A stretch of DNA of 60,000 bases, taken from Mobula hypostoma. Taxonomy: Eukaryota. Under the pieces are notes generated by a model. It ran no database searches, was not told where the DNA came from, and saw only the letters and a program-made list of their open reading frames with translations. Made by a program: the position numbers and the translations under genes. Of this stretch, positions 101 to 57,661 are shown one piece after another. How positions within the stretch are numbered: the first letter of the stretch is position 1; every line of letters begins with the position of its first letter. Where the stretch lies: NCBI RefSeq assembly GCF_963921235.1, contig NC_086107.1, positions 111,602,001 to 111,662,000 of the forward strand, read 5' to 3'.

Positions 101-525
101 TGTCACAACCATGGTTTCGGCAGCTCAAGAGATGCGGCAATTGCTCTTGTGAATTTGCACGTGTCAGCTAATTATTATTTAATTGCGGTAGTATTTAACT
201 CCATACTTGTCGTCGTAGTACTTGTCGAGACTTGGACAGCGCATAGCAACGCTTTGCTGCTGTTTTGCTTTCGGCCTTCCCTAAGATGTTGGACTTTCAA
301 GCCCACTGACACTGAAGACTAGTGATATTCGTTTAATGTCTAGCTGTTTTTTTCAGCCGCAGTGTAGGCTTCGTGTTCCTTTTGAGAGTTTTAGTTAACG
401 GCCTTGTTTGGCCTAGTGTTTATTCTTTATTTTCCCTTTAACACTGTTCTTATTAAAGTCCGAACCATCGACCTGCTTCAGTGTCTCTCACTCCGCACTT
501 GGACCATTTCTGAACCTGGTAAACA
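101..525 (+). mobile_element. Solo LTR (425 bp) inserted into a LINE 3' fragment
   Basis: TGT...ACA ends; exact 5-bp target-site duplication GCTCT at 96-100 and 526-530; internal ATTAAA; host sequence resumes after it. Confidence 0.8.
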
Positions 526-717
526 GCTCTTGAACAAAAGGGGATAACTACACTCGCTTGCCCCATCATTGAGGTGTTCCCACAACTAATGATCTCACAT
601 TAAAGACGCTTTATCTTGTTATCTCACGTTCGCATTATTTATAACTATTTATTTATATTTGCATTTGCACAGTTTGTTGTTTTCTGCACTCTGGTTGATC
701 TTTGATTGACTCTGTTA

Positions 718-1083
718 TAGTCATAGTCATACTTTACTGATCCCGAGGGAAATTGGTTTTCGTTACAGTTGCACCATAAATAATTAAATAGTAATAAAAC
801 CATAAATAATTAAATAGTAATATGTAAATTGTGCCAGGAAATAAGTCCAGGACCAGCCTATTGGCTCAGGGTGTCTGACCCTCCAAGGGAGGAGTTATAA
901 AGTTTGATGGCCACAGGCAGGAATGACTTCCTATGACGCTCTGTGTTGCATCTCGGTGGAATGAGTCTCTGGCTGAATGTACTCCTGTGCCCACCCAGTA
1001 CATTATGTATTGGATGGGAGACATTGTCCAAGATGGCATGCAACCTGGACAGCATCCTCTTTTCAGACACCACCGTCAGAGAG
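718..1083 (-). mobile_element. Rex1/Babar-type LINE 3' fragment
   Basis: C-terminal peptide SHPIH...RLIPPRCNTERHRKSFLPVAIKLYN; (GACTAT)n tail; near-identical to the copies at 12048 and 23228. Confidence 0.8.
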
Positions 1084-1129
1084 TTACTATTCTTTAGATT
1101 TGCTGAGTAATAATATTAATAATATTAGG

Positions 1130-1545
1130 GCAGTGGAGTGATTAGCACAGCATCAAAACTCATAACTTTCTGTAGATGTGTAGTTGAAAGCATGCTAAAA
1201 AGCTGTGTCCCTATGTGGTATAGAAACTGCAGGAAAGCTCTACTACAGGGAATTAAAACTACCCAACGTATCACCAGCAGCTTACTCAACATCAAGAACT
1301 TTTATAAAGAAAGGTGCCAGAAGAAGGCTAGCCATATCATAAATGATTCGACCCATCCCAAGCAGTTCATGGACTCATCGGGGAAGAGGCTACGTAACAT
1401 CCACGCCAGGACCACAAGACTCCAAAACAGTCCCTTTCCTCAAGCAGTAAGGCTGATCAACACCTCCACCCACTAACCCACCTCTACTTTATTATTTCCT
1501 GTCAGTCACTTTATGCGCAACCTAGTGTCACTTTATGGGTATACA
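1130..1545 (+). mobile_element. Decayed Rex1/Babar-type LINE 3' fragment
   Basis: FCRCVVESML...WY...THP...SGKRLRNIHARTTRLQNSPFPQAVRLIN. Confidence 0.7.
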
Positions 1546-1549
1546 ATCA

Positions 1550-2302
1550 GCCGATTAGGAAAAGGGGAGGTGCAATGAGACCTGGGTGTCATTATACACC
1601 AGTCATTGAAAGTGGGCATGCAGGTACAGCAGGCGGTGAAAAAGGCGAATGGTATGCTGGCATTTATAGCGAGAGGATTCGAGTACAGGAGCAGGGAGGT
1701 ACTACTGCAGTTGTACAAGGCCTTGGTGAGACCACACCTGGAGTATTGTGTGCAGTTTTGATCCCCTAATCTGAGGAAAGACATCCTTGCCATAGAGGGA
1801 GTACAAAGAAGGTTCACCAGATTGATTCCTGGGATGGCAGGACTTTCATATGAAGAAAGACTGGATGAACAGGGCTTGTACTCGTTGGAATTTAGAAGAT
1901 TGAGGGGGGATCTGATTGAAATGTATAAAATCCTAAAGGGATTGGACAGGCTAGATGCAGGAAGATTGTTCCCGAAGTTGGGGAAGTCCAAAACGAGGGG
2001 CCACAGTTTGAGGATAGAGGGGAAGCCTTTTAGGACCGAGATGAGGAAAAACTTCTTCACACAGAGAGTGGTGAATCTGTGGAATTCTCTGCCACAGGAA
2101 ACAGTTGAGGCCAGTTCATTGGCTATATTTAAGAGGGAGTTAGATATGGCCCTTGTGGCTACGGGGGTCAGGGGGTATGGAGGGAAGGCTGGGGCGGGGT
2201 TCTGAGTTGGATGATCAGCCATGATCATAATAAATGGTGGTGCAGGCTCGAAGGGCTGAATGGCCTACTCCTGCACCTATTTTCTATGTTTCTATGTTTC
2301 TA
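1550..2302 (+). mobile_element. CR1 LINE, 5'-truncated
   Basis: LYKALVRPHLEYCVQF...GLYSLEFRRLRGDLIE...FFTQRVVNLWNSLP; (TTTCTATG)n tail. Confidence 0.9.
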
Positions 2303-3261
2303 TATTTCTATAAGCTATCTTATGTACTTATAATTAGCGTGTGCTTTTTATTGCATTTTTTAATGCTGTATCGGATTTGGAGTAACAATCATTTCATTCT
2401 CCTTTCCACTTGTGCACTGTTAATGACAATAAACAATCTCAAATCTTGAAGGTTGAATCTTTTCCTCAAAGCCCTATCATTCCCCCTCAAGTTCACATGC
2501 AATTTCTGTTGAAAGAGTCTGCCTCCAGGCAATGTAAAGCAGATTTTAACCATTAGGTGCAGAGGAAAGTTTTTCTTCAAGTTGCATATGGTTTTTGTTA
2601 GATCTGAACATATATAGAAGATGGAGGTTGATTTCTTCCTTTAGAACATTATGTTTTCAATCTTGCTGAGTGAAAATGCACTCAAATAAAATGGCTACTG
2701 CCAAGGACCAAAACACTGGCAATAGATAAACCCTCAAAATCACCATAACCCCTGCTGGTTTACAGAACAACTAACAACTATGTACACATTTTTTTTTGTG
2801 TACAAATTATATACATGACTACAGTTCTTTAATCAATCTCTTCCATTTTCTTGCCTTTGTTTCTTGCCCAGTCTCCTCTACTCTGGTCCAGAGTTCGAAA
2901 TAACTTCAGAATCATCAGGTTTAATATCACCGGCATATGTTGTGAAATTTGTTGTCTTCGCTGCAGCAGCACAATGTGTTACATAATAAGTAAGATGATA
3001 TATATTAAATAGTTAAATTAAGTAAGTAAGGTCGGAGGCTTGAAGTTTTCGGACGACTCAGAGTCGGACTGTGGTCGGGCATGGCAGGGAGAGTTTTCTT
3101 TCTTCTCCCGTGAGGCACCTTCAATTACTCTTCAATCCTCTCGACACTCACTGTGGAGGTCGTATTGTACAGCAAATAAAAGCCTTTCAGTATTTTACCA
3201 AACCTCAGTCTTTTGGAGTAATTGAAGGTGCTTCAATTTTATTCGCTGTACATTTTAAAAC

Positions 3262-4345
3262 ATGGAACAGGCCCTGAGACCAGAAAAATTAGACCTCGAT
3301 CCGCAAACGCCTGACGCTGGAAATACTTTCGAACTCTGGCTGGCCTGCTTCAAAGCGTATCTAGAGGAGATTAAAGCGACCGACCCCGTAGCGAAGTGCA
3401 GAGTTCTACTCTCCAGGGTCAGTCCACGGGTTTATTCGCTGATCAGAGACCAGCCGAATTACGACAGCGCAATGAACGCACCCAAAAGACAATACCTGCG
3501 ACCAATAAACAGCGTCTATGCTCGGCACCGTTTAGCGACACAGCAACAACGGTCCGGGGAATCGAGTGCTGAGTTTGTCCGGGCCCTACAGACACTCGTG
3601 CGGGCCTGCAATTGCCAGGAGCTGACGGCGGTGCAGCATGCAGAACTGCTAGTGAGAGATACCTTCGTTACGGGGACCAGGTCAGTGTACGTGCGCCAGC
3701 GGCTGCTGGAAAAAGCCGATCTTACCCTAGATTCGGCGATGGAGCTGGCTGATACGTTGGAGGCCGCTCTGCATAACTCCGAGGCTCTCCAGGCACGCGA
3801 TCCCCCGATGGCTTCATGGGCGCCGCAGACCCTGCAACCCGCCGGCGAATCGACCTCGGCTGCAGCCAGTCGTGAGTCCGCGGACTGGAGAAGCACCCCC
3901 GGAAACGCTGCGCGGCCCGACAATCTACCTGTTCCAGCTGCGGAAAGGAGGGCCACTTCGCCAAGGTCTGTAAGTCAAAACCGCGAGCGGGATCGAGCAG
4001 TGCCGCGTGCGAGACGTGGGGGGTCGCCATCTTCCCTGCACACTGCCACCACGTGCGAGACATGGGGGCGGCCATCTTCCCTGCACACTGCCACCACGTG
4101 CGAGACATGGGGGCGGCCATCTTGGTCGGCGCCACCTCCCACCGCCTACGACCAACGGGTGCTCACAGGGCACCCCACCACGCCGGACCAAGACAGCGAC
4201 CCCACCCTGGCTTCCGTAACCCTCGACCAAAGCGCTCCCCACCAGCTCGCAAGGTCAATGATGGACATCCTGGTGGAGGGGCACAGGACAAGCTGCCTGT
4301 TTGACACAGGCAGCACGGAGAGTTTTATCCACCCAGCCACGGTAC
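3262..4345 (+). pseudogene. Gypsy gag plus aspartic protease N-terminus, with compensating frameshifts
   Basis: LRPEKLDLDP gag start; CSSCGKEGHFAKVC zinc knuckle in a shifted frame (~3930-3971); CLFDTGSTESFI protease motif. Confidence 0.8.
4006..4121 (+). repeat. 45-bp tandem repeat, ~2.5 copies, within gag
   Basis: CGTGCGAGAC units start at 4006, 4052 and 4097; encodes CETWGRPSSLHTATT. Confidence 0.85.
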
Positions 4346-4929
4346 AGCGAATAAAACTGAAGCACCTTCAATTACTCCAAAAGACAGGTTTGGTAAAATA
4401 CTGAAAGGCTTTTATTCGCTGTACAATACGACCTCCACAGTGAGTGTCTGCCCCCGGACTGAGGGGGAGGGGCAAGGCAAACACCTTTATACAGGACTCT
4501 GTGGGAGGAGCCACAGGGGCAGTCAGCAGAGGGGTGTGTCCAGACAGGTAACCCAGTTACAACATATATACATGGTTTACCACATTCCGTCTGCGTGAGA
4601 TGTGGGACCTTCGAGAGACTTTGAACTTTATTTACCGTGCCCATGGCCTGTTCTTCATCAAGTTATGGTATTGCTTGCACTGCTGTAACTATCTGTTATA
4701 ATTATATGGTTTTTGTCAGTTTTTCAGTCTTGGTCTGTCCTGTGTTTCTGTGATATCACACTGGAGGAAATATTGTATCATTTCCTAATGCATGCATTAC
4801 TGAATGACAATAAAAGAGGACTGCGTGTCCTCATAATCTAAAAAAAAATTTAAAAATGAAAGTAGTGCAAAAATAAGAATGAAAAAGTAGTGACGTAGTG
4901 TCCATGGGTTCAACACCCAAAAGACCAGA

Positions 4930-5475
4930 GGATCATAGACACAAGAGCAGAATAGGCCATTCAGCCCATCAAGTCTGCCTCACTATTTCACCACGGCTGA
5001 TCCATTTTCCTCTCAGCCCCAATCTTCTGCCTTTCAATCCCCCCTTCTCCCCACTGTATCCCTTCATGCCCTGACCAATCAAGAATCTATCACCCTCTGC
5101 CTTAAACGTACGTAAAAATCTGGCTTCCACTGCAGCCTGTGGCAGTGAATTTCACAGATTCACCACACCCTGGCTAAAGAAATTCCCCTGTTCTAAAAAT
5201 ACGCCCCTCTATTCTGAAGCTGTGTCCTCTGGTCTTAGACTCCTCCACCATAGGAAACTTCATCTTCACACCCACTCTATCACATCCTTTCATCATTTGA
5301 TGGGTTTCAATGAGGTCACCCCTCATTCTTCTGAATTCTAGTGAATACAGGCCCAGAGCCATCAAACACTTTTCATATGAGAAGCCATTCAAGCCTGGAA
5401 GTATTTTTGTGAAACTCCTTTGAATCCTGTCCAGTTTCAGCACATCTAAGATAAGGAGCCGAAAACTACTCAACA
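4930..5475 (-). mobile_element. 3' end of an older CR1 LINE that continues at 8757
   Basis: GLYSLEFRRMRGDLIE...TRGHSFRIEG on the minus strand. Confidence 0.8.
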
Positions 5476-8400
5476 ATCCTGGACAGTGAGAATAGAGAAC
5501 TTGGTAGGAAGTTGAAAAGCAGGACCTCAAGGGTGGTTACCTCAGGATTGCTACCTGTGCTAGGTGCCAGTGAGGGTAGGAATAGGATGCTCTGGAGGAT
5601 GAACAAGTGCTGAGGAACTGGTGTAGGGGGCAGGATTTCAGATTTCAGGATCATTGGGACCTCTTCTGGGGCAGGTGGGACCTGTACAAGAGAGACGGGT
5701 TACACTTGAACCACAGGGGGACCAATATCCTTTCAGGGAGGTTTGTTAGTGCTATTGGGGAGGCTTTAAACTAGATTTGCAGGGGGATGGGAACCAGAGT
5801 GCCAGAGCTGACAGTGTGGCTGGGGTGAAAATAAATGATGTTGAAAGTTCAAGCAAATCCGCTAATAGAAAGGTTGTGAGTGGTGGTAAAAATCTTCTGA
5901 GGTGTATATACTTCAATGCTAGGAGTATTGCAGGAAAGGCGGATGAGTTGAGGGCGTGGATTGACACGTGGAATTATGATGTTGTAGCAATTAGTGAAAC
6001 TTGGCTACAGGAGGGGCAGGACTGGCAGCTTAATATTCCAGGGTTCCGATGTTTCAGATGTGATCGAGGCAGAAGAATGAAAGGTGGGGGAGTAGCATTG
6101 CTTGTTAGGGAAAATATTACAGCAGTGCTCAGGCAGGACAGATTAAAGGGCTTGTCTACTGAGTCCTTATGGGTGGAGCTGAGAAACAGGAAAGGTATGG
6201 CCACATTAGTGGGATTGTATTACAGACCACCCAATAGTCAACGAGACTTGGAAGAGCAAATCTGCAGAGAGATAGCAGGCAACTGCAGGAAACATAAAGT
6301 TGTGGTGGTAGGGGATTTTAATTTTCCATACATTGATTGGGACTCCCATACTGTTAGGGGTCTAGATGGTTTAGAGTTTGTAAAATGTGTTCAGGAAAGT
6401 TTTCTAAATCAATATATAGAGGGACCAACTAGAGGGGATGCAATATTGGATCTCCTGTTAGGAAACGAGTTAGGGCAAGTGACAGAAGTCTGTGTGGGGG
6501 AGCACTTTGGTTCCAGTGATCATAACACCATTAGTTTCAATTTGATCATGGACAAGGATAGATCTGGTCCCAGGGTTGAGGTTCTGAACTGGAAGAAGGC
6601 CAAATTTGAAGAAATGAGGAAGGATCTAAAAAGCGTGGATTGGGACAGGTCGTTCTCTGGCAAAGATGTGATTGGTAGGTGGGAAGCCTTCAAAGGGGAA
6701 ATTTTGAGAGTGCAGAGTTTGTATGTTCCTGTCAGGATTAAAGGCAAATTGAATAGGAATAAGGAACCTTGGTTCTCAAGGGATATTGCAACTCTGATAA
6801 AGAAGAAGAGGGAGTTGTATGAAATGTGTAGGAAACAGGGGGTAAATCAGGTGCTTGAGGAGTATAAGAAGTGCAAGAAAATACTTAAGAAAGAAATCAG
6901 GAGGGCTAAAAGAAGACATGAGGTTGCCTTGGCAGTCAAAGTGAAGGATAATCCAAAGAGCTTTTACGAATATATTAAGAGCAAAAGGATTGTAAGGGAT
7001 AAAATTGGTCCTCTTGAAGATCAGAGTGGTCGGCTTTGTGCGGAACCAAAGGAAATGGGGGAGATCTTAAATAGGTTTTTTGCGTCTGTATTTACTAAGG
7101 AGGCTGGCATGAAATCTATGGAATTGAGGGAATCAAGTAGTGAGACCATGGAAACTGTACAGATTGAAAAGGAGGAGGTGCTTGCTGTCTTGAGGAAGAT
7201 TAAAGTGGATAAATCCCTGGGACCTGACAGAGTGTTCCCTCGGACCTTGAAGGAGACTAGTATTGAAATTGCGGGGGCCCTGGCAGAAATATTTAAAATG
7301 TCGCTGTCTACGGGTGAAGGGTCGGAGGATTGGAGAGTGGCTCATGTTGTTCCGTTGTTTAAAAAAGGATCGAAAAGTAATCCGGGAAATTATAGGCCGG
7401 TGAGTTTAACGTCAGTAGTAGGTAAGTTATTGGAGGGAGTACTAAGAGACAGGATCTACAAGCATTTGGATAGACAGGGGCTTATTAGGGAGAGTCACCA
7501 TGGCTTTGTGCGTGGTAGGTCATGTTTGACCAATCTGTTGGAGTTTTTCGAGGAGGTTACCAGGAAAATGGATGAAGGGAAGGCAGTGGATATTGTCTAC
7601 ATGGACTTCAGTAAGGCCTTTGACAAGGTCCCGCATGGGAGGTTAGTTAGGAAAATTCAGTCGCTAGGTATACATGGAGAGGTGGTAAATTGGATTAGAC
7701 ATTAGCTCGATGGAAGAAGCCAGAGAGTGGTGGTAGAGAATTGCTTCTCTGAGTGGAGGCCTGTGACTAGTGGTGTGCCACAGGGATCAGTGCTGGGTCC
7801 ATTGTTATTTGTCATCTATATCAATGATCTGGATGCAAGTTTGCTGATGATACAAAGACTGGAGGTGTAGTAGACAGTGAGGAAGGTTTTCAGAGCCTGC
7901 AGAGGGACTTGGACCAGCTGGAAAAATGGGCTGAAAAATGGCAGATGGAGTTTAATACTGACAAGTGTGAGGTATTGCACGTTGAAAGGACAAACCAACG
8001 TAGAACATACAGGGTTAATGGTAAGGCACTGAGGAGTGCAATGGAACAGAGGAATCTGGGAATACAGATACAAAATTCCCTAAAAGTGTCGTCACAGATA
8101 GATAGGGTCGTAAAGAGAGCTTTTGGTACATTGGCCTTTATTAATCGAAGTATTGAGTATAAGAGCTGGAATGTTATGATGAGGTTGTATAAGGCATTGG
8201 TGAGGCCGAATCTGGAGTATTGTGTTCAGTTTTGGTCACCAAATTACAGGAAGGATACAAATAAGGTTGAAAGAGTGCAGAGAAGGTTTACAAGGATGTT
8301 GCCGGGACTTGAGAAACTCAGTTACAGAGAAAGGTTGAATAGGTTAGGACTTTATTCCCTGGATCATAGAAGAATGAGGTGAGATTTGATAGAGGTATAT

Positions 8401-8756
8401 AAAATTATGATGGGTATAGATAGAGTGAATGCAAGCAGGCTTTTTCCACTGAGGCAAGGGGAGAAAAAAACCAGAGGACATGGGTTAAGGGTGAGGGGGG
8501 AAAAGTTTAAAGGGAACATTAGGGGGGCTTCTTCACACAGAGAGTGGTGGGAGTATGGAATGAGCTGCCAGACGAGGTGGTAAATGCGGGTTCTTTTTTA
8601 ACATTTAAGAATAAATTGGACAGATACATGGATGGGAGGTGTATGGAGGGATATGGTCCGTGTGCAGGTCAGTGGGACTAGGCAGAAAATGTTTCGGCAC
8701 AGCCAAGAAGGGCCAAAGGGCTTGTTTCTGTGCTGTAGTTTCTATGGTTCTATGGT
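5476..8756 (+). mobile_element. CR1 LINE: ORF1 3' end plus disrupted ORF2 (APE endonuclease and RT)
   Basis: YFNARS, ISETWL, GDFN, SDH endonuclease motifs; [32 protein letters not shown] motifs; stops at 7703 and 8380; (TCTATGGT)n tail. Confidence 0.95.
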
Positions 8757-10690
8757 AATACACCAAGTGAAGCCTCACCAGTGTTTTATAAAGTTTCAAC
8801 ATTCCATCCTTGAGTTTATATTCTAGTCTTCTTGAAATGAATGCTAATATCACATTTGCCTTCCTTACCACGACTCAACCTGCAAATTAACCTTTAAGGA
8901 ATCCTGCACAAGCACTCCCAAGTCCCTTTACGCCTCAGTTTTTTGGTATCTCCTCTCCATTTAGAAAATAGTCAACCCTTTCATTTCTTCTACCGAAGTG
9001 CATGACCATACACTTCCTGACAATGTATTCCATCTGCCACTTCTTTGCCCATTATCCTAATCCGTCTAAGTCCTTCTGTAGCTTCTCTACATCCTCAAAC
9101 TACTTGCCCCTCCACTTATCTTTGTATCGTCCGCAAACTTTGCAACAGAGTCATTCAATTCCATCATCCAAATCATTAACATATAATATAAAAAGAATTG
9201 GTCCCAACACAGACACTTGTGGAACACCACTAGTCTCTGGCAGCCAACCAGAAAAGGCTTCCTTTATTCTCACTCTGCCCCCTGAGGTGTACACCATCTG
9301 GTCCAGGTGACGTATCTACCTTCAGACCTTTCAGTTTCTCAAGAACCTTCTCCCTAGTAATGGCAAATTCACACACTTCATGACCCCTCACACTTGGAAA
9401 TTCCACCATACTGTTAGTGTCTTCCACAGTGAAGACCATATAACCATATAACAATTACAGCACGGAAACAGGCCATCTCGGCCCTTCTAGTCCGTGCCGA
9501 ACTCTTACTCTCACAAGACTGATGCAAATTACTTATTCAGTTCATCATGCAATTTCCTTGTCCTCCATTAGTACCCTTCCAACATTGTTTTTCACTGTGG
9601 CCTCTCTTTTTCACTTTATGTGTCTGAAGAAACATTTGGCATCCTCTTTCATATTATTGGCTAGCTTGCTTCTGTATTCGTTCTTTATCTTCTTAATGAC
9701 TTTTTAGTTGCCTTCTGTTGGTACTTGAAAGTTTCCCAATCCTCTACCTTCCCACCAATTTTTGCTCAATTATATGCCCTCACTTTGCCTTTTATGTTGG
9801 CCTTCGCTGCTGTTGTTAGCCACGGCTGTGTTATCTTGCCTTTAGAATACTTCCTCATCTTTGCTTCCAAATACTTCCTCATCTGGCCTTCCAAGTTGTT
9901 TCCAGAAATTCCAGCCGTTGCTGCTCTGCCTGTGTTGTTTTCAGGTCAATTCTAGGCAACTCTCTTTCATGCCTCTGTAATTCCCTTTATTCCACTGTGC
10001 TAATGATACACTTGATTTTAGCTTCACCTTCCCAAATTTCAGGGTGAATTTGATCATATTATGATCACTTTCTCCTAAAGGTTCTTTTACCCTAAGCTCT
10101 CTAATCAATTCTGGTTCATTTCACAATGCCCAAACCAGAATAGCTGATCCTCGAGTGGGCTCAACCACGAGCTGCTCCAAAAGCCATCTCGTAGGCATTC
10201 TAGAAATCTCCCCTCTTGGAATCCAGCACCAACCTGATTTTCCCAATCTACCTGCATATTGAAATCCCCCATGACTATTGTAACATTGTGCTTTTGACAT
10301 GCATTTTCTTGCAGACTTACAACTGTTTGGGGGTCTGCATATAACTCCCATCAATGTCTTTTTACCTTTGCAGTTCCTGAGCTCTCTCCACAATGATGCA
10401 ACACCTTCCAACCCTGTGTCACCTCTTTCTAATGACTTGATTTCAGTTTTCACCAACAGAGCAAAGCCACCCCCTCTACCTCCCTGTCTGTGCTATCGAT
10501 ACAATATGTACAGCTACAATCTTCTTTCAGCCATGATTCAGAGATGCCTGCAACATCACACAGTTACAATCTGTAACTATGCTACAACTTCATCTGCCTT
10601 ATTCCATTTTCTGCGCACATTCAAATATAATATCTTCAGTCCTGCATTCACCCTTTTTGATTTTGTTCACCTTTTATGTTACAACTCATC
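8757..10690 (-). mobile_element. Decayed CR1 ORF2 fragments
   Basis: Frameshifted [42 protein letters not shown]. Confidence 0.75.
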
Positions 10691-11915
10691 CTGTTGACTC
10701 CATCTCTGGAGACAGACTGTCCACTGACATCTTCTACAAGCCCACTGACTCTCATAACTACCTCGACTATACCCCTTCCCACCCCGCCACATGCAAAAAT
10801 GCCATTCCCTATTCCCAGCTCCTCCATCTCCGCCGCACCTGCTCCGAGGATGAGGTTTTCCATTCCAGGACATCTCAAATGTCCTCTTTCTTTAAGGATC
10901 GTGGTTTCCCTTCTACTGTCATCAATGATGCCCTCACCAGCATCTCCTCCACTTCCCGCACTTCAGCTCTCGCCCCATCCTCCCGCCACCACAACAGGGA
11001 CAGAGTTCCCCTTTTCCTCACCTACCACCCCACCAGCCTCCAGATCCTGCACATTATCCTCTGCAACTTCTGCCACCTTCAACAGGACCCCACCACTAAG
11101 CACATCTTTCCCTCTCCACCCCTCTCCGCCTTCCGCAGGGATTGGTCCCTCCGCGACTCCCTGATCCACACGTCCCTCCCCACTGATCTCCCACCCGGCA
11201 CTTATCCCTGTAAGCGTAAGTGCTACACCTGTCCCTACACCTCCTCTCTTGCCACCATTCAGGGCCCTAAACAGTCCTTCCAGATGAGACAACACTTCAC
11301 TTGTGAGTCTGTTGGGGTCATCTATTGCATCCGGTGCTCCCGGTGTGGCCTCCTCTACATCGGTGAAACCCGACGCAGATTGGGGGACCGCTTCGTCGAG
11401 CACCTCCACTCCGTCCACCACAACAGACAGATCTCCCGGTAGCCACCCACTTCAACTCTGCTTCCCATTCCCGTTCAGATATGTCCATACATGGCCTCCT
11501 CTACTGCCATGATGAGGCTGAACTCAGGTTGGAGGAGCAACACCTCATATATTGTCTAGGTAGTCTCCAGCCCCTTGGTATGAACATAGAATTCTCCAAC
11601 TTTCGGTAATTCCCTCCCCCTCCCTTCCTCTATCTCTATTTCACTCTACCCCCTCCCCCAGTTTCCTCATGGTTCCGCCTCCTTCTTCTACCACCCATTG
11701 TTTCCAGGGCTATGACGTTAATGCTTCCTCTCCCCCACCCCTTTGATTTTCCAAATTACTGGTCTTTCAACTGACGCTACAAGCATTCTTCAAATCCTTC
11801 CCTATCTTTCATTCTTCAGTCCTGACGAAGGGTTCCGGCCCGAAACATCAACTCATCATTTCTGACTGATGCTGCCCGACCTGCTGAGTTCATCCAGCGT
11901 ACTGAAGTGTTGCTG
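10690..11915 (+). mobile_element. Penelope-like element: RT C-terminus, GIY-YIG endonuclease and terminal repeat
   Basis: TDIFYKPTDSHNYLDYTPSHP; GVIYCIRCSRCGLLYIGETRRRLGDRFVEH; premature stop at 11440. Confidence 0.9.
11817..11853 (+). ncRNA. Minimal type I hammerhead ribozyme motif (partly decayed)
   Basis: CAGTC-CTGACGA-a-GGG ttccgg CCC-GAAAC-ATC-AACT, in the Penelope terminal repeat. Confidence 0.65.
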
Positions 11916-12047
11916 TTGACTGCAACTTTGCCCTATCAATAGTCTCTCCTTGCTAGGAGTCTCACTACACATTGCCTGTTTGTAAACCAAGTACCTCATC
12001 TTCAGCACCATCACTCCAGTTTCCATCCCCCTGCCAAATTAGTTTAA

Positions 12048-12655
12048 GTCATAGTCATAGTCATACTTTATTGATCCCGGGGGAAATTGGTTTTCGTTAC
12101 AGTTGCACTATAAATAATAAATAGTAATAGAACCATAAATAGTTAAATAGTAATATGTAAATTATGCCAGTAAATTATGGAATAAGTCCAGGACCAGCCT
12201 ATCGGCTCAGGGTGTCTAACCCTCCAAGGGAGGAGTTGTAAAGTTTGATGGCCACAGGCAGGAATGACTTCCTATGATGCTCTGTGCTGCATCTCGGTGG
12301 AATGAGTCTCTGGCTGAATGTACTCCTGTGCCCAACCAGAACATTATGTAGTGGATGGGAGACATTGACCAAGATGGCATGCAACTTAGACAGCATCCTC
12401 TTTTCAGACACCACCGTGAGAGAGTCCAGTTCCATTTCCACAACATCACTGGCCTTACGAATGAGTTTGTTGATTCTGTTGGTGTCTGCTACCCTCAGTC
12501 TGCTGCCCCAGCACACAACAGCAAACATGATCGCACTGGCCACCACAGACTCGTAGAACATCCTCAGCATCGTCCGGCAGATGTTAAAGGACCTCAGTCT
12601 CCTCAGGAAGTAGAGACGGCTCTGACCCTTCTTGTAGACAGCCTCAGTGTTCAGT
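12048..12655 (-). mobile_element. Rex1/Babar-type LINE 3' fragment
   Basis: KKGQSRLYFLRRLRSFN...FYESVVASAIMFAVVCWG; (GACTAT)n tail. Confidence 0.85.
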
Positions 12656-12719
12656 GTAAACCTTGTGTAAACCCACCTGAACAAGTCTAGCCAATCAGCT
12701 CGCAAGGATAGTGGACCCA

Positions 12720-27643: not shown

Positions 27644-28379
27644 CACTGGACAACAATTTTTTTTCATAAACGTTGCTTCCTCAGAATCCTTTTTTTTTGT
27701 TTGTGATAGACTTCTTGAAGCTGAACACAAATATACTTTCAGATTACTTGTATCACGCAGGAATTTGGAGAAACAAGAAATTAACTTTTATTAAATATAA
27801 TGTGTTTAATTGCATAACAGAGCTGACGTCTTGCAATGGTCAAACTAAGCTAAAAATGTTTTGTTGATGATTTATATTTGTACTCAGTGTCTGAGCCTTG
27901 TCGTTGAAGTGACCAACAATAATCAGCCAACATTGATGGATTTCCAGTTGCCCGGATATCGTTTCTCCATGACCGCAATGTCCTGGTGAAACCTTTCACC
28001 ATGATCGTCACTGACAGCGCGAGGATTTGCAGGAAAGAAGTCTAAATGGGAATGCAGAAAATGAATCTTTAGGGACATGTTGCGCTTCATGGTTTTGAAT
28101 GCTTGAAGCATGTTGTCAACCAGCTGCTCATAAGTTGGTGCTCTGTAGTTGCCAAGAAAATTTTCAACAACATCCTTGTATGCCTTCCATGCGATTCTCT
28201 CTGATTCCACTAGAAGTTCTTTGAATTGCCTGTCACTGAATTATGAATTGAAATTGAAATAACGAATATAGGCAATTTCTAATAAAATGGTACATGATAG
28301 GGAAATTTCATGATGAGTTTCATGATTAGCAGGGTAAAATCCATAAGTATTCAGGAAGCAATATCTTTGTTGTCCAGTG
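27644..28379 (-). mobile_element. Internally deleted Chapaev3 DNA transposon
   Basis: Perfect 13-bp TIRs CACTGGACAACAA; 3-bp TTA TSD; transposase C-terminus NFLGN...MSLKIHFLHSHLDFFP...SDDHGERFHQDI (27923-28210). Confidence 0.85.
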
Positions 28380-30740
28380 TTATTATATACCATTGCCTCT
28401 TAAGAACACAAATTGCCAGTTTCATCATGGGAGGCTACTTAAGAGGGTTGCTTTCGAAACTGACAAACAATCACTCTTATTAATACTTGTTCAACAATAC
28501 CCTCTTAAACCATATAACATCCACTGATAATTCAAGTCCATCAAAGCCAGCAATTGAGTGTGAGACATCATGATCCTGTATCATTGTAACTAGGTAGAAG
28601 GGACAATAAATAAATATTCATGTAAATTGGCCCTCATCAACACCATTCATTCCAATGCTGTAAAGGTATGGTTACTGTATTGTGATTTTGAGAACAAAAT
28701 CAACTTCCTGAGAAAATTTGACTTGTAGATTCCTCTAAAGATGGAACTCGTTTATTATCCAAGGATGGCCTCTATTTCTTTGTCCCTCTACCTTCTCAGA
28801 CTTATTATCTCACTTGCTTTCCTGAGTGAAATACTTTTCTTCCACTCTGTTTTCTCTTTGCAGCCCAGAGCTTGCTTCCTCATTGCTAATCTATGCCAAA
28901 TTTTTGTGGTATCTCACAACTTCTGCATTTTGACAAACTCTTTGCAGGGAGAAGCTCGTTTTGTCTTAATTTGGATGTAACTTCAGAGTTTACTTTGAAC
29001 TAGTTTTAGGTAAAATCAGACACTTACAGTTACTAAAATGAAACACTCAATAGACTTTGTCAGTATAAAATATTGAAATCTGAACTATAGCTAAGCCCAA
29101 ATTGTACTTTAATTATATCTGTAAGATCTTTTATTTTATGATTGCATACCTATTCTTTATTACTCTTTTCTCCTAAACTATTCACTCTGGTCACACAACT
29201 CATCAAATCAGTTTGGGTTAGATATCTGCAATGTTATGAAAGCTAACTGTGGTATCTAAACCAAAATATGTATTCTGAACATTTAAAATTTATTGCCAAC
29301 AGATAAGAAAAAGAAACTGTTTTCCTTGCAAAACTTTGGATCCACCTTCCCTTGATCATAAAGACTTTACTTTTTCATGGGGCTTTTTCTCCAAATAGCA
29401 TGTCCAACTATAAGCGTACTGTATAATGTGCTATCCTCTAAACTTCAGGGAATTTATATTCTTTCCAACACTGAAATTAGGTTCATTGGCTTGTAATTAC
29501 CTAGTCTGTTGCCTTCCTGTGGAAATGATGGTGCAAAGGTTGCAAATCTAATCTTTTGCCATTGGCAGTGGTTGTGATAAAGTCAATGCACATCTTCCCC
29601 TTCTTACCATGGAAGAGCCCTGAGAGTCGATGCACCTTCCTTTGGCTGAATCCATGGCAACATCTTTAGCCAGAGGGGAATCTGTGGAATTCATTGCCAC
29701 AGACGACTGTGGAGGCCAAGTTATCGGGTATATTTAAAGCAGAGGTTGATAGGTTTTCTTGATCAGTCAGGGCGCCAAAGGTGACGAGGAGAAGGCCAGA
29801 GAATGCAGTTGAGAGAGATAGTAAGTCAGCCATGATGGAATATTGAAGACTAGATGGGCTGAATGGCCTAAATCTGCTCCTATGTCATATGAGTTATGGG
29901 CTCTGCTGCTGGTTTTTTATAATTAGGAAATACTAGTTGCCTTGACAATGACGGCGATAAGTCTCTTAGGATATTTTCCCCAAATTCTTTCATTTACAAG
30001 AAAGATGCTAATACTTTGTATTGATCTATTGTGCTCATGTTCTCAATCTTCATTTCAAATTTGATCATGTTTTACTTAACTGATTATTATTCATAACTCT
30101 TTGGTCCTCTTCCCACTTGCCCCATCTTCAGAAGCATCTGAACATTTTATGGAGACCAATCATTACATTGCTAAAGCACTTGCATACTTTCTTCATGTCT
30201 ATGTTAATAGCTCCAGGCAACTTTTTTCATTGTGGGCATTGCTGGTAAGACAATTACTCCCCATCTCTATTTTCTGCTGCATTCAGTGATTTGTTAGACC
30301 ACCTGGCAGCTGTCGGACTGCAGCTCTGTTTATAAGTTCCAATAGGATGTCCTCCATTTTGTGTTTAATGCAAGGGCTGGAGATGGAGAATTTTTCCATA
30401 CAAGGTGGCTTCCAGGAAGTTTGATATATTCCAGGTTTCTCCTGTATTTCATGCACCCTTGACTTCCTCCAATTGCAAAGCAGGCAGAAGATTTTCCAAG
30501 ACAATCCATCCTGACTGGCTCTCAGATTTGCTTCAATCTGACTTTTAACAATAACAAAAATATGGAAACTTAGACTATCCATTCCTTTCATTTTTCTATT
30601 GCATGAGAGAGACAAAATTGTATTCTCTTTCTGGCATATTTAGTTTTTTTTTAAAAATCAGACATCTATTCCACCACAGTAAATCAAAGAGTTGATAAAA
30701 TATGGAGGCATTCTGCTTCTCAAGCTTTGGGGCACATTTT

Positions 30741-31045
30741 GGGCGCCACGTTAGCGAGGCGGTTAGGGCGATGCTATTACAGCTCGGGCCGTCGGAGTTC
30801 AGAGTTCAGTCCTGGCGTACTCTGTAAGGAGTCTCTGTACGTCCTCCCCGTGAAATGTGTGGGTTTTCACTGGGTCCGCTGGTTTCTTCCCACAGTCCAA
30901 AGACGTACCGGGTAAGTTAATTAGTCATTGTAAATTTGTCCCGTGATTAACTTAGGGTTAAATCAGGGTTTTCGGGGGTTTGCTGGGCAGTGCGTTCGAA
31001 GGGACAGAAGGGCCTGTTCCAAGCTGTATCTCAGAATAAATAAAT
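30741..31045 (+). mobile_element. HE1/V-type tRNA-derived SINE
   Basis: tRNA-like head; V-domain CTCCCCGTG...TGGGTTT...CCCACAGTCCAAAGAC; CR1-like tail ending (AATA)n. Confidence 0.8.
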
Positions 31046-31909
31046 TTACAGCAGCTTTATTGCTCCAAAGAATGTCCCGTCACCATTTAATGCAATCTGT
31101 GCCTGTATCCGCGGTATTACAAGTTCAAGTTCATCTCCTACTTCAAGCTGTGCGATGCCAGCAGTGAAACAGGAGTTGTTTGGACAGCAGGCAGACATGT
31201 TCTGAATGCACCGAAACAAAATCACCGAGTGCGGCTCGTTGCCAACAATATTGGCCTTGTATCTTTTTATAAAGTGCCCCATCGTAAACGTATTATCCTT
31301 GTACCACACTTGGCTGTACACCAGAAAGTAACCAGCTTCTATCACAGAGATCTTATTACCTTTCTTGTCGAGAGCCCTTCCTTTTTTCAAGCTCAGAATC
31401 CAGGGGACGGAGGTGGCTTCCATTTGGTTTTGATTCCCATCGGCTCTCCGTTCAACTCGACAGGATTGCTGTGGTCTTCCCGGGATGCATTTTTGGCAAT
31501 TGCTCACTCTTACGGTGCGCTTTGGGACATTGGAAGCAATCAGTTGTACACAGGCCTGCTGTGCCTGTTCAGGGAGTGACCTGTGTATTCTAAGCTTCAT
31601 CCCATCTCTTGATTTAGCCTCGTGGTACAGTTGCTCCTCAAAAACCTCATCAAGCTGGTTCACTGAAATGCTCCAGTTGGCCGCTTGGGCCTTATTTAAT
31701 TTTGTCAGGGCTTCCAGGTGGAGTTTGTACGTGTCCAGTTCCTCTCTCATCGAAGAGATTTCTCCTTTCAGTGCAAGGACGTGGTGTAAAGCGACCACTG
31801 CCACATAGGTCGACATCAGAGCTACTGAAATTAAGATGCAGGCAGAGTAGATCAAATGTCTGTGCTGAATATCGTAGCCAGTCTTTTCTTGTTCTGTGCT
31901 CATTTTCAT
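31046..31909 (-). CDS. tnfsf13b: BAFF (TNFSF13B)-like type II membrane TNF-superfamily ligand, intronless, 287 aa
   Basis: First ATG at 31909 (the track start is GTG); TM helix LIYSACILISVALMSTYVAVVAL; stalk VLALKGEISSMREEL; RIHR site; TNF domain CVQLIA...VPWILSLKKG...LFRCIQNM...NNSCFTAGIAQLEVGDELELVIPR...TFFGAIKLL, collinear with BAFF; orthologue versus paralogue unresolved. Confidence 0.92.
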   Translation of the reverse strand: MKMSTEQEKTGYDIQHRHLIYSACILISVALMSTYVAVVALHHVLALKGEISSMREELDTYKLHLEALTKLNKAQAANWSISVNQLDEVFEEQLYHEAKSRDGMKLRIHRSLPEQAQQACVQLIASNVPKRTVRVSNCQKCIPGRPQQSCRVERRADGNQNQMEATSVPWILSLKKGRALDKKGNKISVIEAGYFLVYSQVWYKDNTFTMGHFIKRYKANIVGNEPHSVILFRCIQNMSACCPNNSCFTAGIAQLEVGDELELVIPRIQAQIALNGDGTFFGAIKLL

Positions 31910-32254
31910 TACAAATTCCCCCTTGTTGCGGAACTGCTGCAACAACTCATCCAAAACACAAGTGCCGTTTCCTGTCAGCTGGTATTTGCAGAACACTTCA
32001 CTATATCTGCTTCTGTTTTGTAATCTGGCAGGTTTTACAGTCTGCGGATGAAAGCAACAATTCACATTCTAAAACTAAACATCTACAAACGAGGAGAGTT
32101 GAGCTGGTATCTTCTTTTGCATTCCTGATGTTATCAGATTAACTGTTCCTAAGATAGGAAATGTAACTATAATAGGCTTTTTCATCTGATCTCAGGAGAG
32201 CAATTGGGATTTGGAATTCAATGCCCAATAGATTCACTTCTTTCTTCACTTATG

Positions 32255-52045: not shown

Positions 52046-55000
52046 TGTTGTAATGTCAGCATTATTTAAAGTAAGTTAATACTAATTAGGATGATGGGGG
52101 GTTTTACTTCCGTTCTTTTTACTTCCGGTGTGCTTTGTATATAGTGAAAGCCTCTGTATATACATAATGGCTTTGAAATTCGAGATAAAGTTGTTTCTTG
52201 GGCATGAAGTTGTCAAGTGTGCCTTTTTCAAAGTAGAAGTTACTACATATTTTTGGCGACGAGGTGAACTGGTTTTGTGAACGCATCGGCACGTTTTTCA
52301 AACGGGAGCTTCGCGTTTCAGATGGCTACATTTGGAACTATCGGTGAATTTCTGGAAGGAAACGAGACTAGACGTTATTGAGCCCGTCCAGTTTTCAAGG
52401 TGGGCGACTCCCATTGTTCCAGTTCTGAAGGCAGACAAAATGGTGAGGATATGTGGGGATTATAAGCTTACGGTGAATCAGGTCTCTAAGCTGGAGGAGT
52501 ACCCATTGCCACAGGTGGATGACCTGTTTGCGACCATGACAGGGGGTAAGCTGTTCACAAAGCTGGACATGAGCCACGCCTACCAACAGCCGCTGCTCGA
52601 CGAGAATTCAAAGGAGTACGTCACAATTAATATGCACAAGGGATTATTCAAGTACAATCGCCTGGTGTTTGGAGTGGCGTCCAGCTCTGCCATTTTCCAA
52701 AGGACAATGGACACTTTGCTGCAAGGGATTCCGCAAGTAGCAGTGTACCTTGATGATATTTTGATCACGGGGACTATGGAGGTGGAGCATCTGGCTAATT
52801 TAGAACGGGTGCAGAAGAGGCTCTCAGACGCAGGGCTGCGGTTGAAACGTGGAAAATGTGTTCCTGGCATCGACTGTGACTTTCCTGGGACACAAGATCA
52901 CAACTGAGGGGCTTTTCCCAGTGGAGGACAAAGTGAGAGCTATAAAGGAGGCCCCAAGCCCTAAGACCGTCACGGAACTCAGAACATTTTTGGGCATGGT
53001 GAATTATTATGGCAAGTTTCTTCCTGACCTCTCAAGGGCTTTGACCCCACTGTATAAGCTGCTTCACAATGACACTAAGTGGCAGTGGGGTGAAGAGCAG
53101 GAGAAAGCTTTCAAGGAAGTGAAAGAACTCCTCCACTCAGCGAAGCGGCTTGTTCACTATGACCCAGACAAGGAGATCACCCTTGCATGCAATGCCTCGC
53201 CCTATGGAGTCGGGGCAGTTCTCTCACATGTAATGAAAGACTGTTCAGAGAAGCCTATTGGTTTTGCTTCATGTACCCTGACAGCTGCTGAGAAGGGATA
53301 TTCACAGCTAGACAAAGAAGGTCTGGCCATTGTTTTTGCGGTCAAACGCTTTCATCAGTACCTTTATGACGTGTATTCACAATTTATATGGACCATAAAC
53401 CACTGATGAGCCCGTTCAGCGAGACTAGATGCATCCCACTGCTGGCCTCAGCCAGGATACAGCGTTAGGCTCTTGCATTGTCAGCCTACCAGTACACCAT
53501 AGTGTACAGAGCGGGTGGGAATAATGCAAGTGCTGATGCACTGAGCCGACTACCATTACCTGAGACACCTGTTGCTACATATAGAACATAGAATATAGAA
53601 TAGTACAGCACAGTACAGGCCCTTCGGCCCACAATGTTGTGCTGACCCTCAAACCCTGCCTCCCATATAAGCCCCTACCTTAAATTCCTCCATATACCTG
53701 TCCAGTAGTCTCTTAAACTTCACTAGTGTATCTGCCTCCACCACTGACTCTGGCAGTGCATTCCACACACCAACCACTCTCTGAGTAAAAAACCTTCCTC
53801 TAATATCCCCCTTGAACTTCCCACCCCTTACCTTAAAGCCATGTCCGCTTGTATTGAGTAGTGGTGCCCTGGGGAAGAGGCGCTGGCTATCCACTCTATC
53901 TATTCTTCTTATTAAATTGTACACCTCTATCATGTCTCCTCTCATCCTCCTTCTCTCCAAAGAGTAAAGCCCTAGCTCCCTTAATCTCTGATCATAATGC
54001 ATACTCTCTAAACCAGGCAGCATCCTGGTAAATCTCCTCTGTACCCTTTCCAATGCTTCCACATCCTTCCTATAGTGAGGTGACCAGAACTGAACACAGT
54101 ACTCCAAGTGTGGCCTAACCAGAGGTTTATAGAGCAGCATCATTACATTGCAACTCTTAAACTCTATCCCTCGACTTATGAAAGCTAACACCCCATAAGC
54201 TTTCTTAACTACCCTATCCACCTGTGAGGCAACTTTCAGGGATCTGTGGACATGTACCCCCAGATCCCTCTGCTCCTCCACACTACCAAGTATCCTGCCA
54301 TTTACTTTGTACTCTGCCTTGAAGTTTGTCCTTCCAAAGTGTACCACCTCACACTTCTCCGGGTTGAACTCCATCTGCCACTTCTCAGCCCACTTCTGCA
54401 TCCTATCAATGTCTCTCTGCAATCTTTCACAATCCTCTACACTATCTACAACACCACCAACCTTTGTGTCGTCTGCAAACTTGCCAACCCACCCTTCTAC
54501 CCCCATATCCAGGTCATTAATAAAAATCACGAAAAGTAGAGGTCCCAGAACAGATCCTTGTGGGACACCACTAGTCACAATCCTCCAATCTGAATGTACG
54601 CCCTCCACCACCACCCTCTGCCTTCTGCAGGCAAGCCAATTCTGAATCCACCTGGCCAAACTTCCCTGGATCCCATGCCTTCTAACTTTCTGAATAAGCC
54701 TACCGTGTGGAACCTTGTCAAATGCCTTACTAAAATCCACATAGATCACATCCACTGCACTACCCTCATCTATATGCCTGGTCACCTCCTCAAAGAACTC
54801 TATCAGGCTTGTTAGACACCATCTGCCCTTCACAAAGCCATGCTGACTGTCCCTGATCAGACCATGATTCTCTAAATGCCCAGAGATCCTATCTCTAAGA
54901 ATCTTTTCCAACAGCTTTCCCACCACAGACGTAAGGCTCACTGGTCTATAATTACCCAGACTATCCCTACTACCTTTTTTGAACAAGGGGACAGCATTCG

Positions 55001-57661
55001 CCTCCCTCTAATCCTCCGGTACCATCCCAGTGGACAACAAAGACATAAAGATCCTTGGCAGAGGCTCAGCAATCTCCTCTCTCGCCTCGTGGAGCAGCCT
55101 GGGGAATATTCTGTCAGGCCCCGGGGACTTATCTGTCCTAATGTATTTTAACAACTCCAACACCTCCTCTCCCTTAATGTCAACATGCTCCAGAACATCA
55201 ACCTCACTCATATTGTCGTCACCATCATCAAGTTCCCTCACATTGGTGAATACCGAAGAGAAGTATTCATTGAGGACCTCGTTCACTTCCACAGCCTCCA
55301 GGCACATCTTCCCACCTTTATCTCTAATCGGTCCCACCTTCACTCCTGTCATCCTTTTTTCCTTCACATAATTGAAGAATGCCTTGGGGTTTTCCTTTAC
55401 CCTACTCGCCAAGGCCTTCTCATGCCCCCTTCTTGCTCTTCTCAGCCCCTTCTTAAGCTCCTTTCTTGCTTCCCTATAATCCTCAATAGACTCATCTGAT
55501 CCTTGCTTCCCAAACCTCATGTATGCTGCCTTCTTCCACCTGACTAGATTTTCCACTTCACTTGTCACCCATGGTTCCTTCACCCTACCATTCTTTATCT
55601 TCCTCACCGGGACAAATTTATCCCTAACATCCCGCAAGAGATCTCTAAACATCGACCACATGTCCATAGTACATTTCCCTGCAAAAACATCATCCCAATT
55701 CACACCCGCAAGTTCTAGCCTTATAGCCTCATAATTTACCCTTCTCCAATTAAAAATTTTCCTGTCCTCTCTAATTCTATCCTTTTCCATGATAATGCTA
55801 AAGGCCAGGGAGCGGTGGTCACTGTCCCCCAGATGCTCCAGAGACTGTGTTTTCATTGGAGAGGCTGTCAGAGACACCTGTAAAGGTGATCCAGATCAGG
55901 CAATGGACAGAGAGGGACCCAGTCTGGTCCCAAGTCAAGACTTTTCTTTTACTAGGCTGGCCCAGAGTAGTGGAAGGGGAGGAACTGAGGCCCTTATGCC
56001 AAATTCAAGACAGAACTCAGTCTGCAGGATGGCTGCATTTTCTGGGGGACGACGGTCATCGTGCCTCCCCCGGCCATTCACAGATTGTGGAGGAAATTCA
56101 TGAGACTCACCCAGGAGTGTCTCGAATGAAAAGCCTTGCAAGATTCTACATTTGGTGGCCAAGAATGGATCACGATCTGGAGAACAAGGTAAAATCATGC
56201 ACGTAATGTCAGACTAATCAGAATGTGCCACCACCAGCTCCTTTGCGCCAATGGGAGTGGCCAGACCACCCCTGGTCTAGGCTACAATTGGACTTTGCTG
56301 GCCCTTTTATGGGGCAGATGTTTCTTGTAATGGTAGATGTGCATTCTAAATGGATTGAAGCTCACACCATGAGCAACATCACAGCCCCCTCAACCATAGA
56401 CAAACTCAGGCAAATGTTTGAAGTCCACGGGTTGCCTGTCACTCTGGTCACTGATAATGGCCCAGCGTTCGCCAGTGAACTGTTCAGTGAGTTCATGCAG
56501 CAGAATGGCATTCATCACACTCGGACGGCCCCTTTCCACCCAGCCTCCAACGGTTTGGCTGAGTGGGTTGTTCAGAAAATGAAGGAAGACCTGAAGCGGA
56601 TGACAGAGACTCTCTTAGCATGGGGCTTTCACATTTCCTGTTTAAATACCGCCTTACACCACAGACTATGACTGCCCACACTCCAGCAGAGATGCTGATG
56701 AGGCATAGGCCCAAGTCAAGATTGGACCTACTGCGCCCGGACATGAAGGCAAAAGTGGAGAGAAAGCAGGAAAAGCAGAAGGAGGGACATGATCAACATG
56801 CGCGAGAGAGACAGTTAAAACCGGATGACAATGTCTTTGTGAGAAACAATCAGCAATGGCTGCCTGGGGTTATTCTTCAGCAGAGTGGTCCCGTCTCCTA
56901 TGTTGTTAAGCTGACTGATGGGCGTGTTTTCCGCAGACATCAGGACCATGTGCACCTGCATCATGATACCGGCTCAGAGGCAGACAGTTCCACGGAGTTT
57001 CCATTTGTGAGTCAGACTACGGTGGAAGCATGCCCACCAGTGACTTTGCCAGAGGGCGAGACGCTGGCAGAGGCGTCAGGGTCCCCTGAGGAGGACGGAC
57101 ATCCTCATGCAGACACACAGACTCCTCTCATGCCCCCAACACCAGATCCACCCAAAACACCCTCACCAGCAGTGCCTGCTGGGTCACCGGGGGTAGTGCG
57201 CAGATCACAACACACTCGTAAACCTCCTGACAGACTGAATCTTTGATGGGACAGTTCTTTTTTGTTGTTGTTAGATTGAATGTTGAATCTGTCACATTTT
57301 CCAGATGTTTTGTATTGATAAGCTGTTGCTGAGATACTAGTATAAGTTATTAGGAGTACGCAAGTTAACAACACCACTGTTTTTATTTCCTAGTTTTTTA
57401 CATTGGGGAGGTTGAATTTTAAAGGAGGAGAAGTGTCATAATGTGAGCATTATTTAAAGTAAGTTAATACTAATTAGGATAATGGGGGGTTTTAGTTCTG
57501 TTCTTTTTACTTCCGGTGTGCTTTGGTATATAGTGTTCCTGCCATGTCGTGCGGGTTGTGAAAGCCTCTGTATATGCATAACAGTTTTGAAGTTGGAGAT
57601 AAAGTTGTTCCTTGGGCATGAAGTTGTCGAGTGTGCCTTTTTCAAAGTAGAAGTTACTACA
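52046..57661 (+). mobile_element. Gypsy (Mag-like) LTR retrotransposon, internally deleted and inactivated
   Basis: LTRs 52046-52247 and 57434-57661; PBS TGGCGACGAGG at 52254; PPT 57421-57433; TSD ACTAG/ACCAG; RT (RICGDYK, YLDD), RNase H (ASPYGVGAVL), integrase (HETHPG, LDFAGP, TDNGP). Confidence 0.92.
53580..55838 (-). mobile_element. Young 5'-truncated CR1 LINE inserted in the Gypsy pol
   Basis: ORF2 open except for one TAG at 55008-55010; [20 protein letters not shown]-type tail at 53580-53600. Confidence 0.95.

Follow-up and report, generated by a model that had tools for sequence, protein, structure and literature searches.

A probable functional BAFF retrogene, intronless in the devil ray Mobula hypostoma and with relatives across sharks and rays

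The window analysed here is a stretch of 60,000 nucleotides from the genome of Mobula hypostoma (C45:111602001-111662000, in an assembly of 3.48 Gb). Its minus strand carries, at positions 31046..31909, a single ATG-to-TAA reading frame of 864 nt that comprises 287 codons and a stop, with the TAA at 31046-31048. We identify this frame as the single-exon coding sequence of a BAFF (TNFSF13B) paralogue. A preliminary sequence-only reading, which left the strand unstated, had described an intact frame encoding a tail, a transmembrane helix, a stalk and a full TNF domain, and all of these parts are found on the strand assigned here. The strongest relative of the predicted protein matches with an E value of 1.6e-162, and for a frame of this kind to be open fortuitously would be far beyond chance. 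The exact 287-residue protein is present in NCBI/UniRef (P0053), in the same 90% cluster as 'uncharacterized protein LOC134354111 isoform X2 [Mobula hypostoma]'. For this locus NCBI also lists predicted models that include spliced isoforms.

Only one stretch of the protein rises above a Kyte-Doolittle mean of 1.6, in 19-residue windows starting at residues 18-29 and with a peak of 2.38. This sole hydrophobic stretch corresponds to a membrane helix at about residues 19-47 (31769..31855, minus strand), which has the form of a type II signal anchor and lies within a modelled helix covering residues 6-77. The predicted orientation is that of a type II protein, with a tail, one helix and a C-terminal ectodomain. 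Further along the stalk, the motif R-I-H-R at residues 107-110 (31580..31591, minus strand) is followed by serine and occupies the position of the BAFF processing site. It is a minimal furin-type R-x-x-R rather than R-x-K/R-R, and R107, R110 and S111 are nearly invariant across 29 aligned BAFFs. Cleavage would be expected after R-I-H-R, immediately before this serine. Residues 135-163 (31421..31507, minus strand) align with a Cys-rich insert that is encoded by coding exon 4 of the parental gene described below. The whole protein includes three N-x-S/T sequons and nine cysteines.

The TNF homology domain occupies residues 164-287 (31049..31420, minus strand). It is recognized by the Pfam TNF model (PF00229; 32.3 bits against a cut-off of 23), and human BAFF chains from the PDB align with residues 165-287 ungapped, with an E value of 2e-45. 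APRIL (TNFSF13) and BALM belong to the same TNFSF13 family and share the fold of the window protein, but among PDB sequences APRIL is a weaker match than BAFF (4e-20) and leaves a 6-residue gap in the D-E loop, which is of BAFF length here. EDA matches at 1e-4. Cys234 and Cys247, which are invariant across the 29 sequences, form what we take to be the intrachain disulfide pair of BAFF. An AlphaFold model built on 29 aligned relatives (mean pLDDT 64.7) has a long N-terminal helix at residues 6-77, a low-confidence stalk and a beta-sandwich with strands between residues 166 and 285; pLDDT falls below 50 at residues 74-137, 143-146 and 148-163. The top fold matches of this model are BAFF, APRIL and other TNF ligands. 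The best of them is human BAFF 6fxn, with a target TM of 0.82, an rmsd of 1.5 A over 126 columns and 60% identity.

A six-frame search of the genome yields six matches, consisting of the window gene, four pieces of a gene on contig C21 and one exon on contig C40, and no further BAFF copies were found by this search. The C21 gene corresponds to a protein of 313 residues (P0024), which was mapped onto 110 kb of the contig. Seven coding exons with GT-AG type borders encode residues 7-313 and span 84 kb. A 357-codon ORF lies on the same strand, 12 kb upstream of the first mapped exon, and 'protein ABHD13' is the atlas cluster closest to it (score 0.99, 246/256 features). Supplementary file 2 of Marin 2020 (PMC7674686) gives the order ABHD13-TNFSF13B for human, coelacanth, gar, elephant shark and whale shark, and the order LIG4-ABHD13-TNFSF13B is listed there as well. 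Because the C21 gene shows the ABHD13-TNFSF13B order that Marin 2020 lists, it is the canonical orthologue, and the multi-exon parent presumed by the sequence-only reading does exist. The window gene lies outside the conserved neighbourhood (LIG4-ABHD13-TNFSF13B-MYO16), and ABHD13 adjoins the C21 gene. Since the window gene is found instead on C45 near SOCS1, it is a paralogue and not the orthologue.

All six exon junctions of the parental gene fall within continuous, well-aligned coding sequence of the window gene, and none is accompanied by a change in length. They correspond to window residues 85/86, 115/116, 134/135, 163/164, 201/202 and 251/252, where the first bases after each junction are 31654, 31564, 31507, 31420, 31306 and 31156, respectively. 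The span from 31156 to 31654 (minus strand) thus contains all six parental intron positions without interruption. Colinearity over the six junctions, together with location on a separate contig, agrees with the earlier description of a retroposed paralogue as opposed to the syntenic BAFF gene. Both elasmobranch gene types, the window ORF included, carry the Cys-rich insert of parental exon 4, and it is absent from all six bony-vertebrate BAFFs aligned. This distribution implies that the copy was made after the extra exon arose. A 'unique extra exon' appears in the title of Li et al. 2012, a paper cited here from reference lists.

Other features of the canonical gene and its relatives were observed in passing. 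About 33 kb of tandem repeats (C21:97010251-97043821, L012-L015) fill the large intron between canonical BAFF coding exons 2 and 3. These repeats contain long open frames in several phases, with repeating motifs such as HQGELPLLSSGRVTITIIRESYHY. Among the zebra shark canonical BAFF isoforms (P0020, P0025, P0027), X2 and X3 are without the segments that match C21 exon 3 and exons 3+4. Because they lack exactly these segments, exon-skipping forms of the canonical gene are annotated in a shark. The exon on C40 (C40:111898402-111898599, L003) is a third, more distant BAFF-like sequence, with 55% identity to window residues 194-251, and it stops at the same ...CFTAG exon border. This exon may well belong to BALM or APRIL.

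Phylogenetic relationships were inferred from 30 rows, comprising the window ORF and 29 of 52 protein-search matches. The 23 matches left out were two truncated ray models, two exon-skipping zebra-shark isoforms and 19 bony-vertebrate BAFFs, and the rows of the tree are without BALM, APRIL or chimaera sequences. The 24 elasmobranch BAFFs are monophyletic relative to six bony vertebrates (100/99). Origin of the window gene as a whole-genome-duplication paralogue was considered and rejected, on the grounds of this grouping and of the common extra exon. Within the elasmobranchs, the window ORF falls in a clade of 14 full-length sequences (clade A, 98/100). Its other members come from sawfish, little skate and 11 sharks of the orders Hexanchiformes, Pristiophoriformes, Heterodontiformes, Orectolobiformes, Lamniformes and Carcharhiniformes. 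The remaining ten elasmobranch rows, including the C21 gene and the spiny dogfish BAFF (P0012), form an unresolved grade of canonical-type sequences, so the order of events is not fixed by the tree.

Both gene types are present in eight of the species in the tree. Because clade A holds sharks as well as rays, and because these eight species carry both types, the duplication predates the shark-ray split, which is dated to about 250-300 million years ago. The paralogue is therefore old, as first proposed. No chimaera BAFF occurs among the 52 matches of the protein search. Marin 2020 (PMC7674686) counts two TNFSF13B genes in whale shark (Rhincodon) and one in elephant shark (Callorhinchus), in line with the suspicion of the sequence-only reading that extra BAFF-like genes might already be on record for cartilaginous fishes. 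These counts hint at an origin of the copy after the chimaera split, or at its loss in chimaeras.

The surroundings of the window gene also appear to be shared between sharks and rays. An SH2 scan identified, about 250 kb from the window ORF, a single-exon SOCS1-like ORF of 197 codons that matches SOCS1 in the PDB at 2.7e-33 and SOCS2 at 5e-21. For the whale shark, the Marin 2020 supplement (PMC7674686) gives the order 'WBP2 - TIMM88 - TNFSF13B-2 - SOCS1' and describes the gene as a 'potential transposed duplicate'. Clade A includes the whale-shark protein P0005, which resembles, by eye, the TNFSF13B-2 alignment rows of that supplement. Since this protein groups with the window ORF and SOCS1 lies near both genes, position and sequence are common to shark and ray, and whale-shark TNFSF13B-2 (XM_020528564.1) is the orthologue of the window gene. 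In two other scans, the nearest Tim10-family match on C45 is about 15 Mb from the window gene, and none of 33 SOCS_box matches is on C45. In those parts of Marin 2020 (PMC7674686) that were available, TNFSF13B-2 is only counted and marked as a possible transposed duplicate, 'retro' occurs 0 times in the text and 'intron' 0 times in the supplement. The pan-elasmobranch spread of the gene, its intronlessness and selection on it are not addressed in those parts.

Comparison of the window gene with its parent by the Nei-Gojobori method over 286 codons gives a pN of 0.233, a pS of 0.676 and an omega of about 0.16. Constraint is strongest in the TNF domain (pN 0.077, pS 0.70, omega about 0.04) and omega is about 0.30 for residues 1-163; all of these omega values are rough because synonymous sites are saturated (pS about 0.7). 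The ninefold deficit of amino-acid changes that has been kept is incompatible with neutral drift for so long. Judged by these substitution counts, the window gene is under purifying selection, and dN/dS is far from the value of 1 that would argue against the earlier claim that selection has maintained the copy.

The window protein and its sawfish orthologue are identical at 101 of 104 positions over residues 184-287 and at 97 of 119 over residues 1-119. Within clade A, TNF domains have an average pairwise identity of 0.82, compared with 0.88 among canonical genes and 0.80 between the types. Seven alignment columns split the two types (clade A/canonical): C24/F, V25/I, A76/S, R134/K, S136/N, E164/Q and I221/S. 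The last of these diagnostic columns sits in the D-E loop.

Sequences bordering the gene were searched for traces of its insertion. The sequence-only reading had seen no clear poly(A) remnant or target-site duplication, and likewise none was found around the window ORF in this analysis, where only short A-runs occur downstream. The window flanks have no similarity to the 5' or 3' flanks of the parent (best E values 0.86 and 2.6). With the poly(A) tract, target-site duplication and UTR similarity all gone, it is the absence of introns, on its own, that makes the case for retroposition. The missing poly(A) tract and target-site duplication weigh little, because synonymous divergence is saturated and such traces are expected to have been erased. 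The gene is surrounded mostly by transposon ORFs, which fits its initial description as lying amid decayed repeats.

One interspersed repeat (30740..31045) directly touches the stop codon. Elsewhere in the window there are four diverged copies with 71-76% identity, two of which reach the last base, 31045, and summed contig depth over this interval is 2,298-11,343. ARAGORN called no tRNA gene in it, and the label 'SINE-like' is our own reading. Since the repeat ends at the base before the stop codon, the present 3' UTR of the gene begins within antisense repeat sequence.

A leader that lacks ATG but is open for 53 codons lies directly 5' of the start codon (31910..32068, minus strand). Its last 29 or so codons align with N-terminal extensions of the models from skate (P0002) and sevengill shark (P0003), and this alignment is about as good as that of the coding part. 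Such conservation is unusual for a 5' leader. The segment could be a regulatory element, or it could be coding in some species.

Evidence that bears on transcription comes from assembled sequencing runs. Contigs spanning the whole ORF are present in three of the four runs compared, which derive from two studies and two organisms (A and B) and are only guessed to be RNA. Among these presumed RNA runs, the organism A contig has no differences from the ORF, and the organism B contig has eight differences and no gaps over 1,025 bases. None of the sequencing records that contain this stretch is listed as RNA. The runs comprise 85-241 million contig letters, compared with a 3.48-Gb genome, a size that seems to fit transcriptomes better than whole-genome data. 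A transcript start at 31909-31915 was considered, as cover upstream is approximately zero in four runs, but it was set aside because there was no DNA run for comparison. On the receptor side, the genome contains one TACI-CRD2 match and one BCMA-type match, and a scan for the BAFF-R binding domain gave 12 weak partial matches only (E 0.017-0.09).

Most annotated models of this locus in related rays do not contain the complete ORF. In the searched protein collection, six of the seven distinct models from four myliobatiform species exit the ORF after residue 183, namely M. hypostoma isoform X2, one model from M. birostris, three Hypanus sabinus isoforms and one model from Hemitrygon akajei. The sole full-length model of the seven is the one from the present genome, and the collection contains none for Mobula birostris, Hypanus sabinus or Hemitrygon akajei. 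The truncated NCBI models use an internal splice donor, AAAG/GTAATAAG (31352..31363, minus strand), whose last exon base, 31360, is the first base of codon 184. When this donor is joined to an alternative last coding exon of 39 codons and TGA (27923..28041, minus strand; acceptor ...tttag at 28043-28042), the tail of the 222-residue isoform P0055 is reproduced. This exon lies inside a high-copy repeat, with a summed contig depth of 365-12,687 as opposed to 4-40 in the flanks, and the tail exon of the stingray models is homologous to it (73% identity over 33 residues). The 15 joints listed do not include 31360 -> 28041, and another 32 joints exist beyond them. The repeat that donates the exon (window 27900-28260) resembles the C-terminal region of a protein of transposase type (…KIHFLHSHLDFFPANPRAVSDDHGERFHQDIAVMEKRY…). 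The truncated models may represent regulated isoforms, by-products or a sign of damage to the part encoding the TNF domain. Residues 184-287 are almost perfectly conserved along the lineage to this genome, which speaks for the full-length product as the one under selection here.

These observations make it very probable that the window ORF is a functional BAFF retrogene, with an intronless structure that was read in this genome only. In a stem elasmobranch, a spliced BAFF mRNA already carrying the extra exon typical of cartilaginous fish would have been reverse-transcribed and inserted on another chromosome near SOCS1. The retrocopy would then have gained transcription of its own, and purifying selection, evident from the substitution counts, has kept it in sharks and rays. 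Its product is predicted to be a type II membrane protein that forms trimers via the TNF domain and may be shed at the R-I-H-R site. It would act as a second BAFF beside the ABHD13-linked gene, with signalling to B cells through TACI/BCMA/BAFF-R-type receptors. A retrocopy leaves the parental promoter behind, so the difference between the two genes most likely lies chiefly in the place and time of their expression. The gene would then have the function of a B-cell survival ligand that the sequence-only reading assigned to it.

The main alternative for the origin of the gene is transposed duplication of BAFF at the DNA level, followed by loss of all six introns, perhaps through recombination between the gene and its own cDNA. 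The loss of the poly(A) tract and target-site duplication is compatible with such a history, and Marin 2020 (PMC7674686) says only 'potential transposed duplicate' of the whale-shark copy. The conservation of about 29 leader codons in clade-A genes also implies that upstream sequence travelled along or was gained early, but the same leader is equally well explained as parental 5' UTR carried on an mRNA. That all six introns are precisely missing, with unchanged junction lengths, is what one event of reverse transcription is expected to leave and would otherwise take many steps, and no similarity of the flanks to the parent locus was found. A DNA-level duplicate is therefore very improbable. 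A processed pseudogene or neutral relic that is open by chance, or a contaminant of assembly or cDNA origin, is hardly credible at all. The decayed transposons all around the gene would suit such a relic, but a TNF domain with a pN of 0.077 against a pS of 0.70 would not. Intact full-length relatives occur in 13 other species from independent assemblies, the SOCS1 neighbourhood is conserved, and the ORF is embedded in a contig of 117 Mb, with repeats flanking it on either side. For practical purposes, the tree and the selection counts refute relic and contaminant alike.

A different type of alternative concerns the product rather than the origin of the gene. Devil rays and stingrays might mainly make a membrane protein without a TNF domain, consisting of residues 1-183 and a transposon tail, with the full-length form minor or fading in these animals. 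The same donor after residue 183 in six of seven models from four myliobatiform species favours this proposal, as does a repeat-derived tail exon common to this genome and the stingray models (73% over 33 residues). However, gene models are predictions, the joint 31360 -> 28041 is absent among the 15 joints listed, and the organism B contig passes over the ORF ungapped. Moreover, the part that would be skipped is the best conserved, since residues 184-287 agree with sawfish at 101 of 104 positions, which implies that the full-length product has stayed under selection in the lineage leading to this genome. We consider a predominantly TNF-less product very improbable and prefer a retrogene whose full-length protein remains the functional one.

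The two elasmobranch BAFF genes encode proteins of similar design. Canonical BAFF (P0024 from C21 and P0012 from dogfish) has the same tail, helix, stalk, R-x-x-R motif, extra-exon insert and TNF domain as the window protein. The TNF domains of the two types average 80% identity and share the fold of human BAFF. Where the genes differ is in structure and location: canonical BAFF has seven coding exons near ABHD13, whereas the window gene has one coding exon near SOCS1 on another chromosome.

The truncated ray models invite comparison with Delta-BAFF, an exon-skipping regulatory isoform of mammalian BAFF. Like Delta-BAFF, these predicted proteins would keep the membrane anchor and stalk and be without an intact TNF domain. 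Unlike Delta-BAFF, they arise through an internal donor and a transposon-derived terminal exon, not through exon skipping.

Intronless interferon genes, which arose by retroposition, are another instance of intronless cytokine genes that exist beside intron-containing relatives. They belong to a different cytokine family, in contrast to the window gene, and the BAFF parent is retained in all eight species in which both types were found. Type I interferon genes are described as intronless in amniotes and amphibians in two reports (PMC7016992, PMC6640115).

BAFF is the master B-cell survival signal, and no lineage with antibody-based immunity is older than the cartilaginous fish. To our knowledge, shark work in print has treated BAFF as one gene, represented by dogfish and catshark cDNAs. 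An intronless or retroposed BAFF in cartilaginous fish is undescribed in the open literature searched, where the whale-shark count and remark in Marin 2020 are the sole mention; the work of Li et al. (2012, 2015) on BAFF of dogfish and catshark may bear on this point. The sequence itself is already catalogued, often as 'TNFSF13B-like' or 'uncharacterized protein', so that the gain is one of interpretation and not of new sequence. If a retrogene BAFF has been kept under strong constraint throughout shark and ray history, then studies of BAFF expression and function in sharks must separate the two genes. The pair would also constitute a clean natural case of a cytokine retrogene retained long-term beside its parent.

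A broader scenario can be outlined, although we regard it as unlikely in full. Two BAFF ligands may have run B-cell homeostasis in elasmobranchs since before the shark-ray split, the second retroposed and under its own regulation. In stingrays and devil rays, the retrogene might then have captured a transposon-derived terminal exon to yield a conserved membrane isoform that lacks the TNF domain and modulates the ligand, an independently evolved counterpart of Delta-BAFF.

The rest of the window is notable for its long retroelement ORFs, located at 5750-8382, 52281-53406, 53649-55895 and 56207-57246. Their translations, which were judged by eye, include LINE-type endonuclease and reverse transcriptase as well as LTR-type reverse transcriptase and integrase. 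Swings in GC skew coincide with these ORFs, reaching +0.39 at 6-8 kb, -0.40 at 10-12 kb and -0.36 at 54-56 kb.
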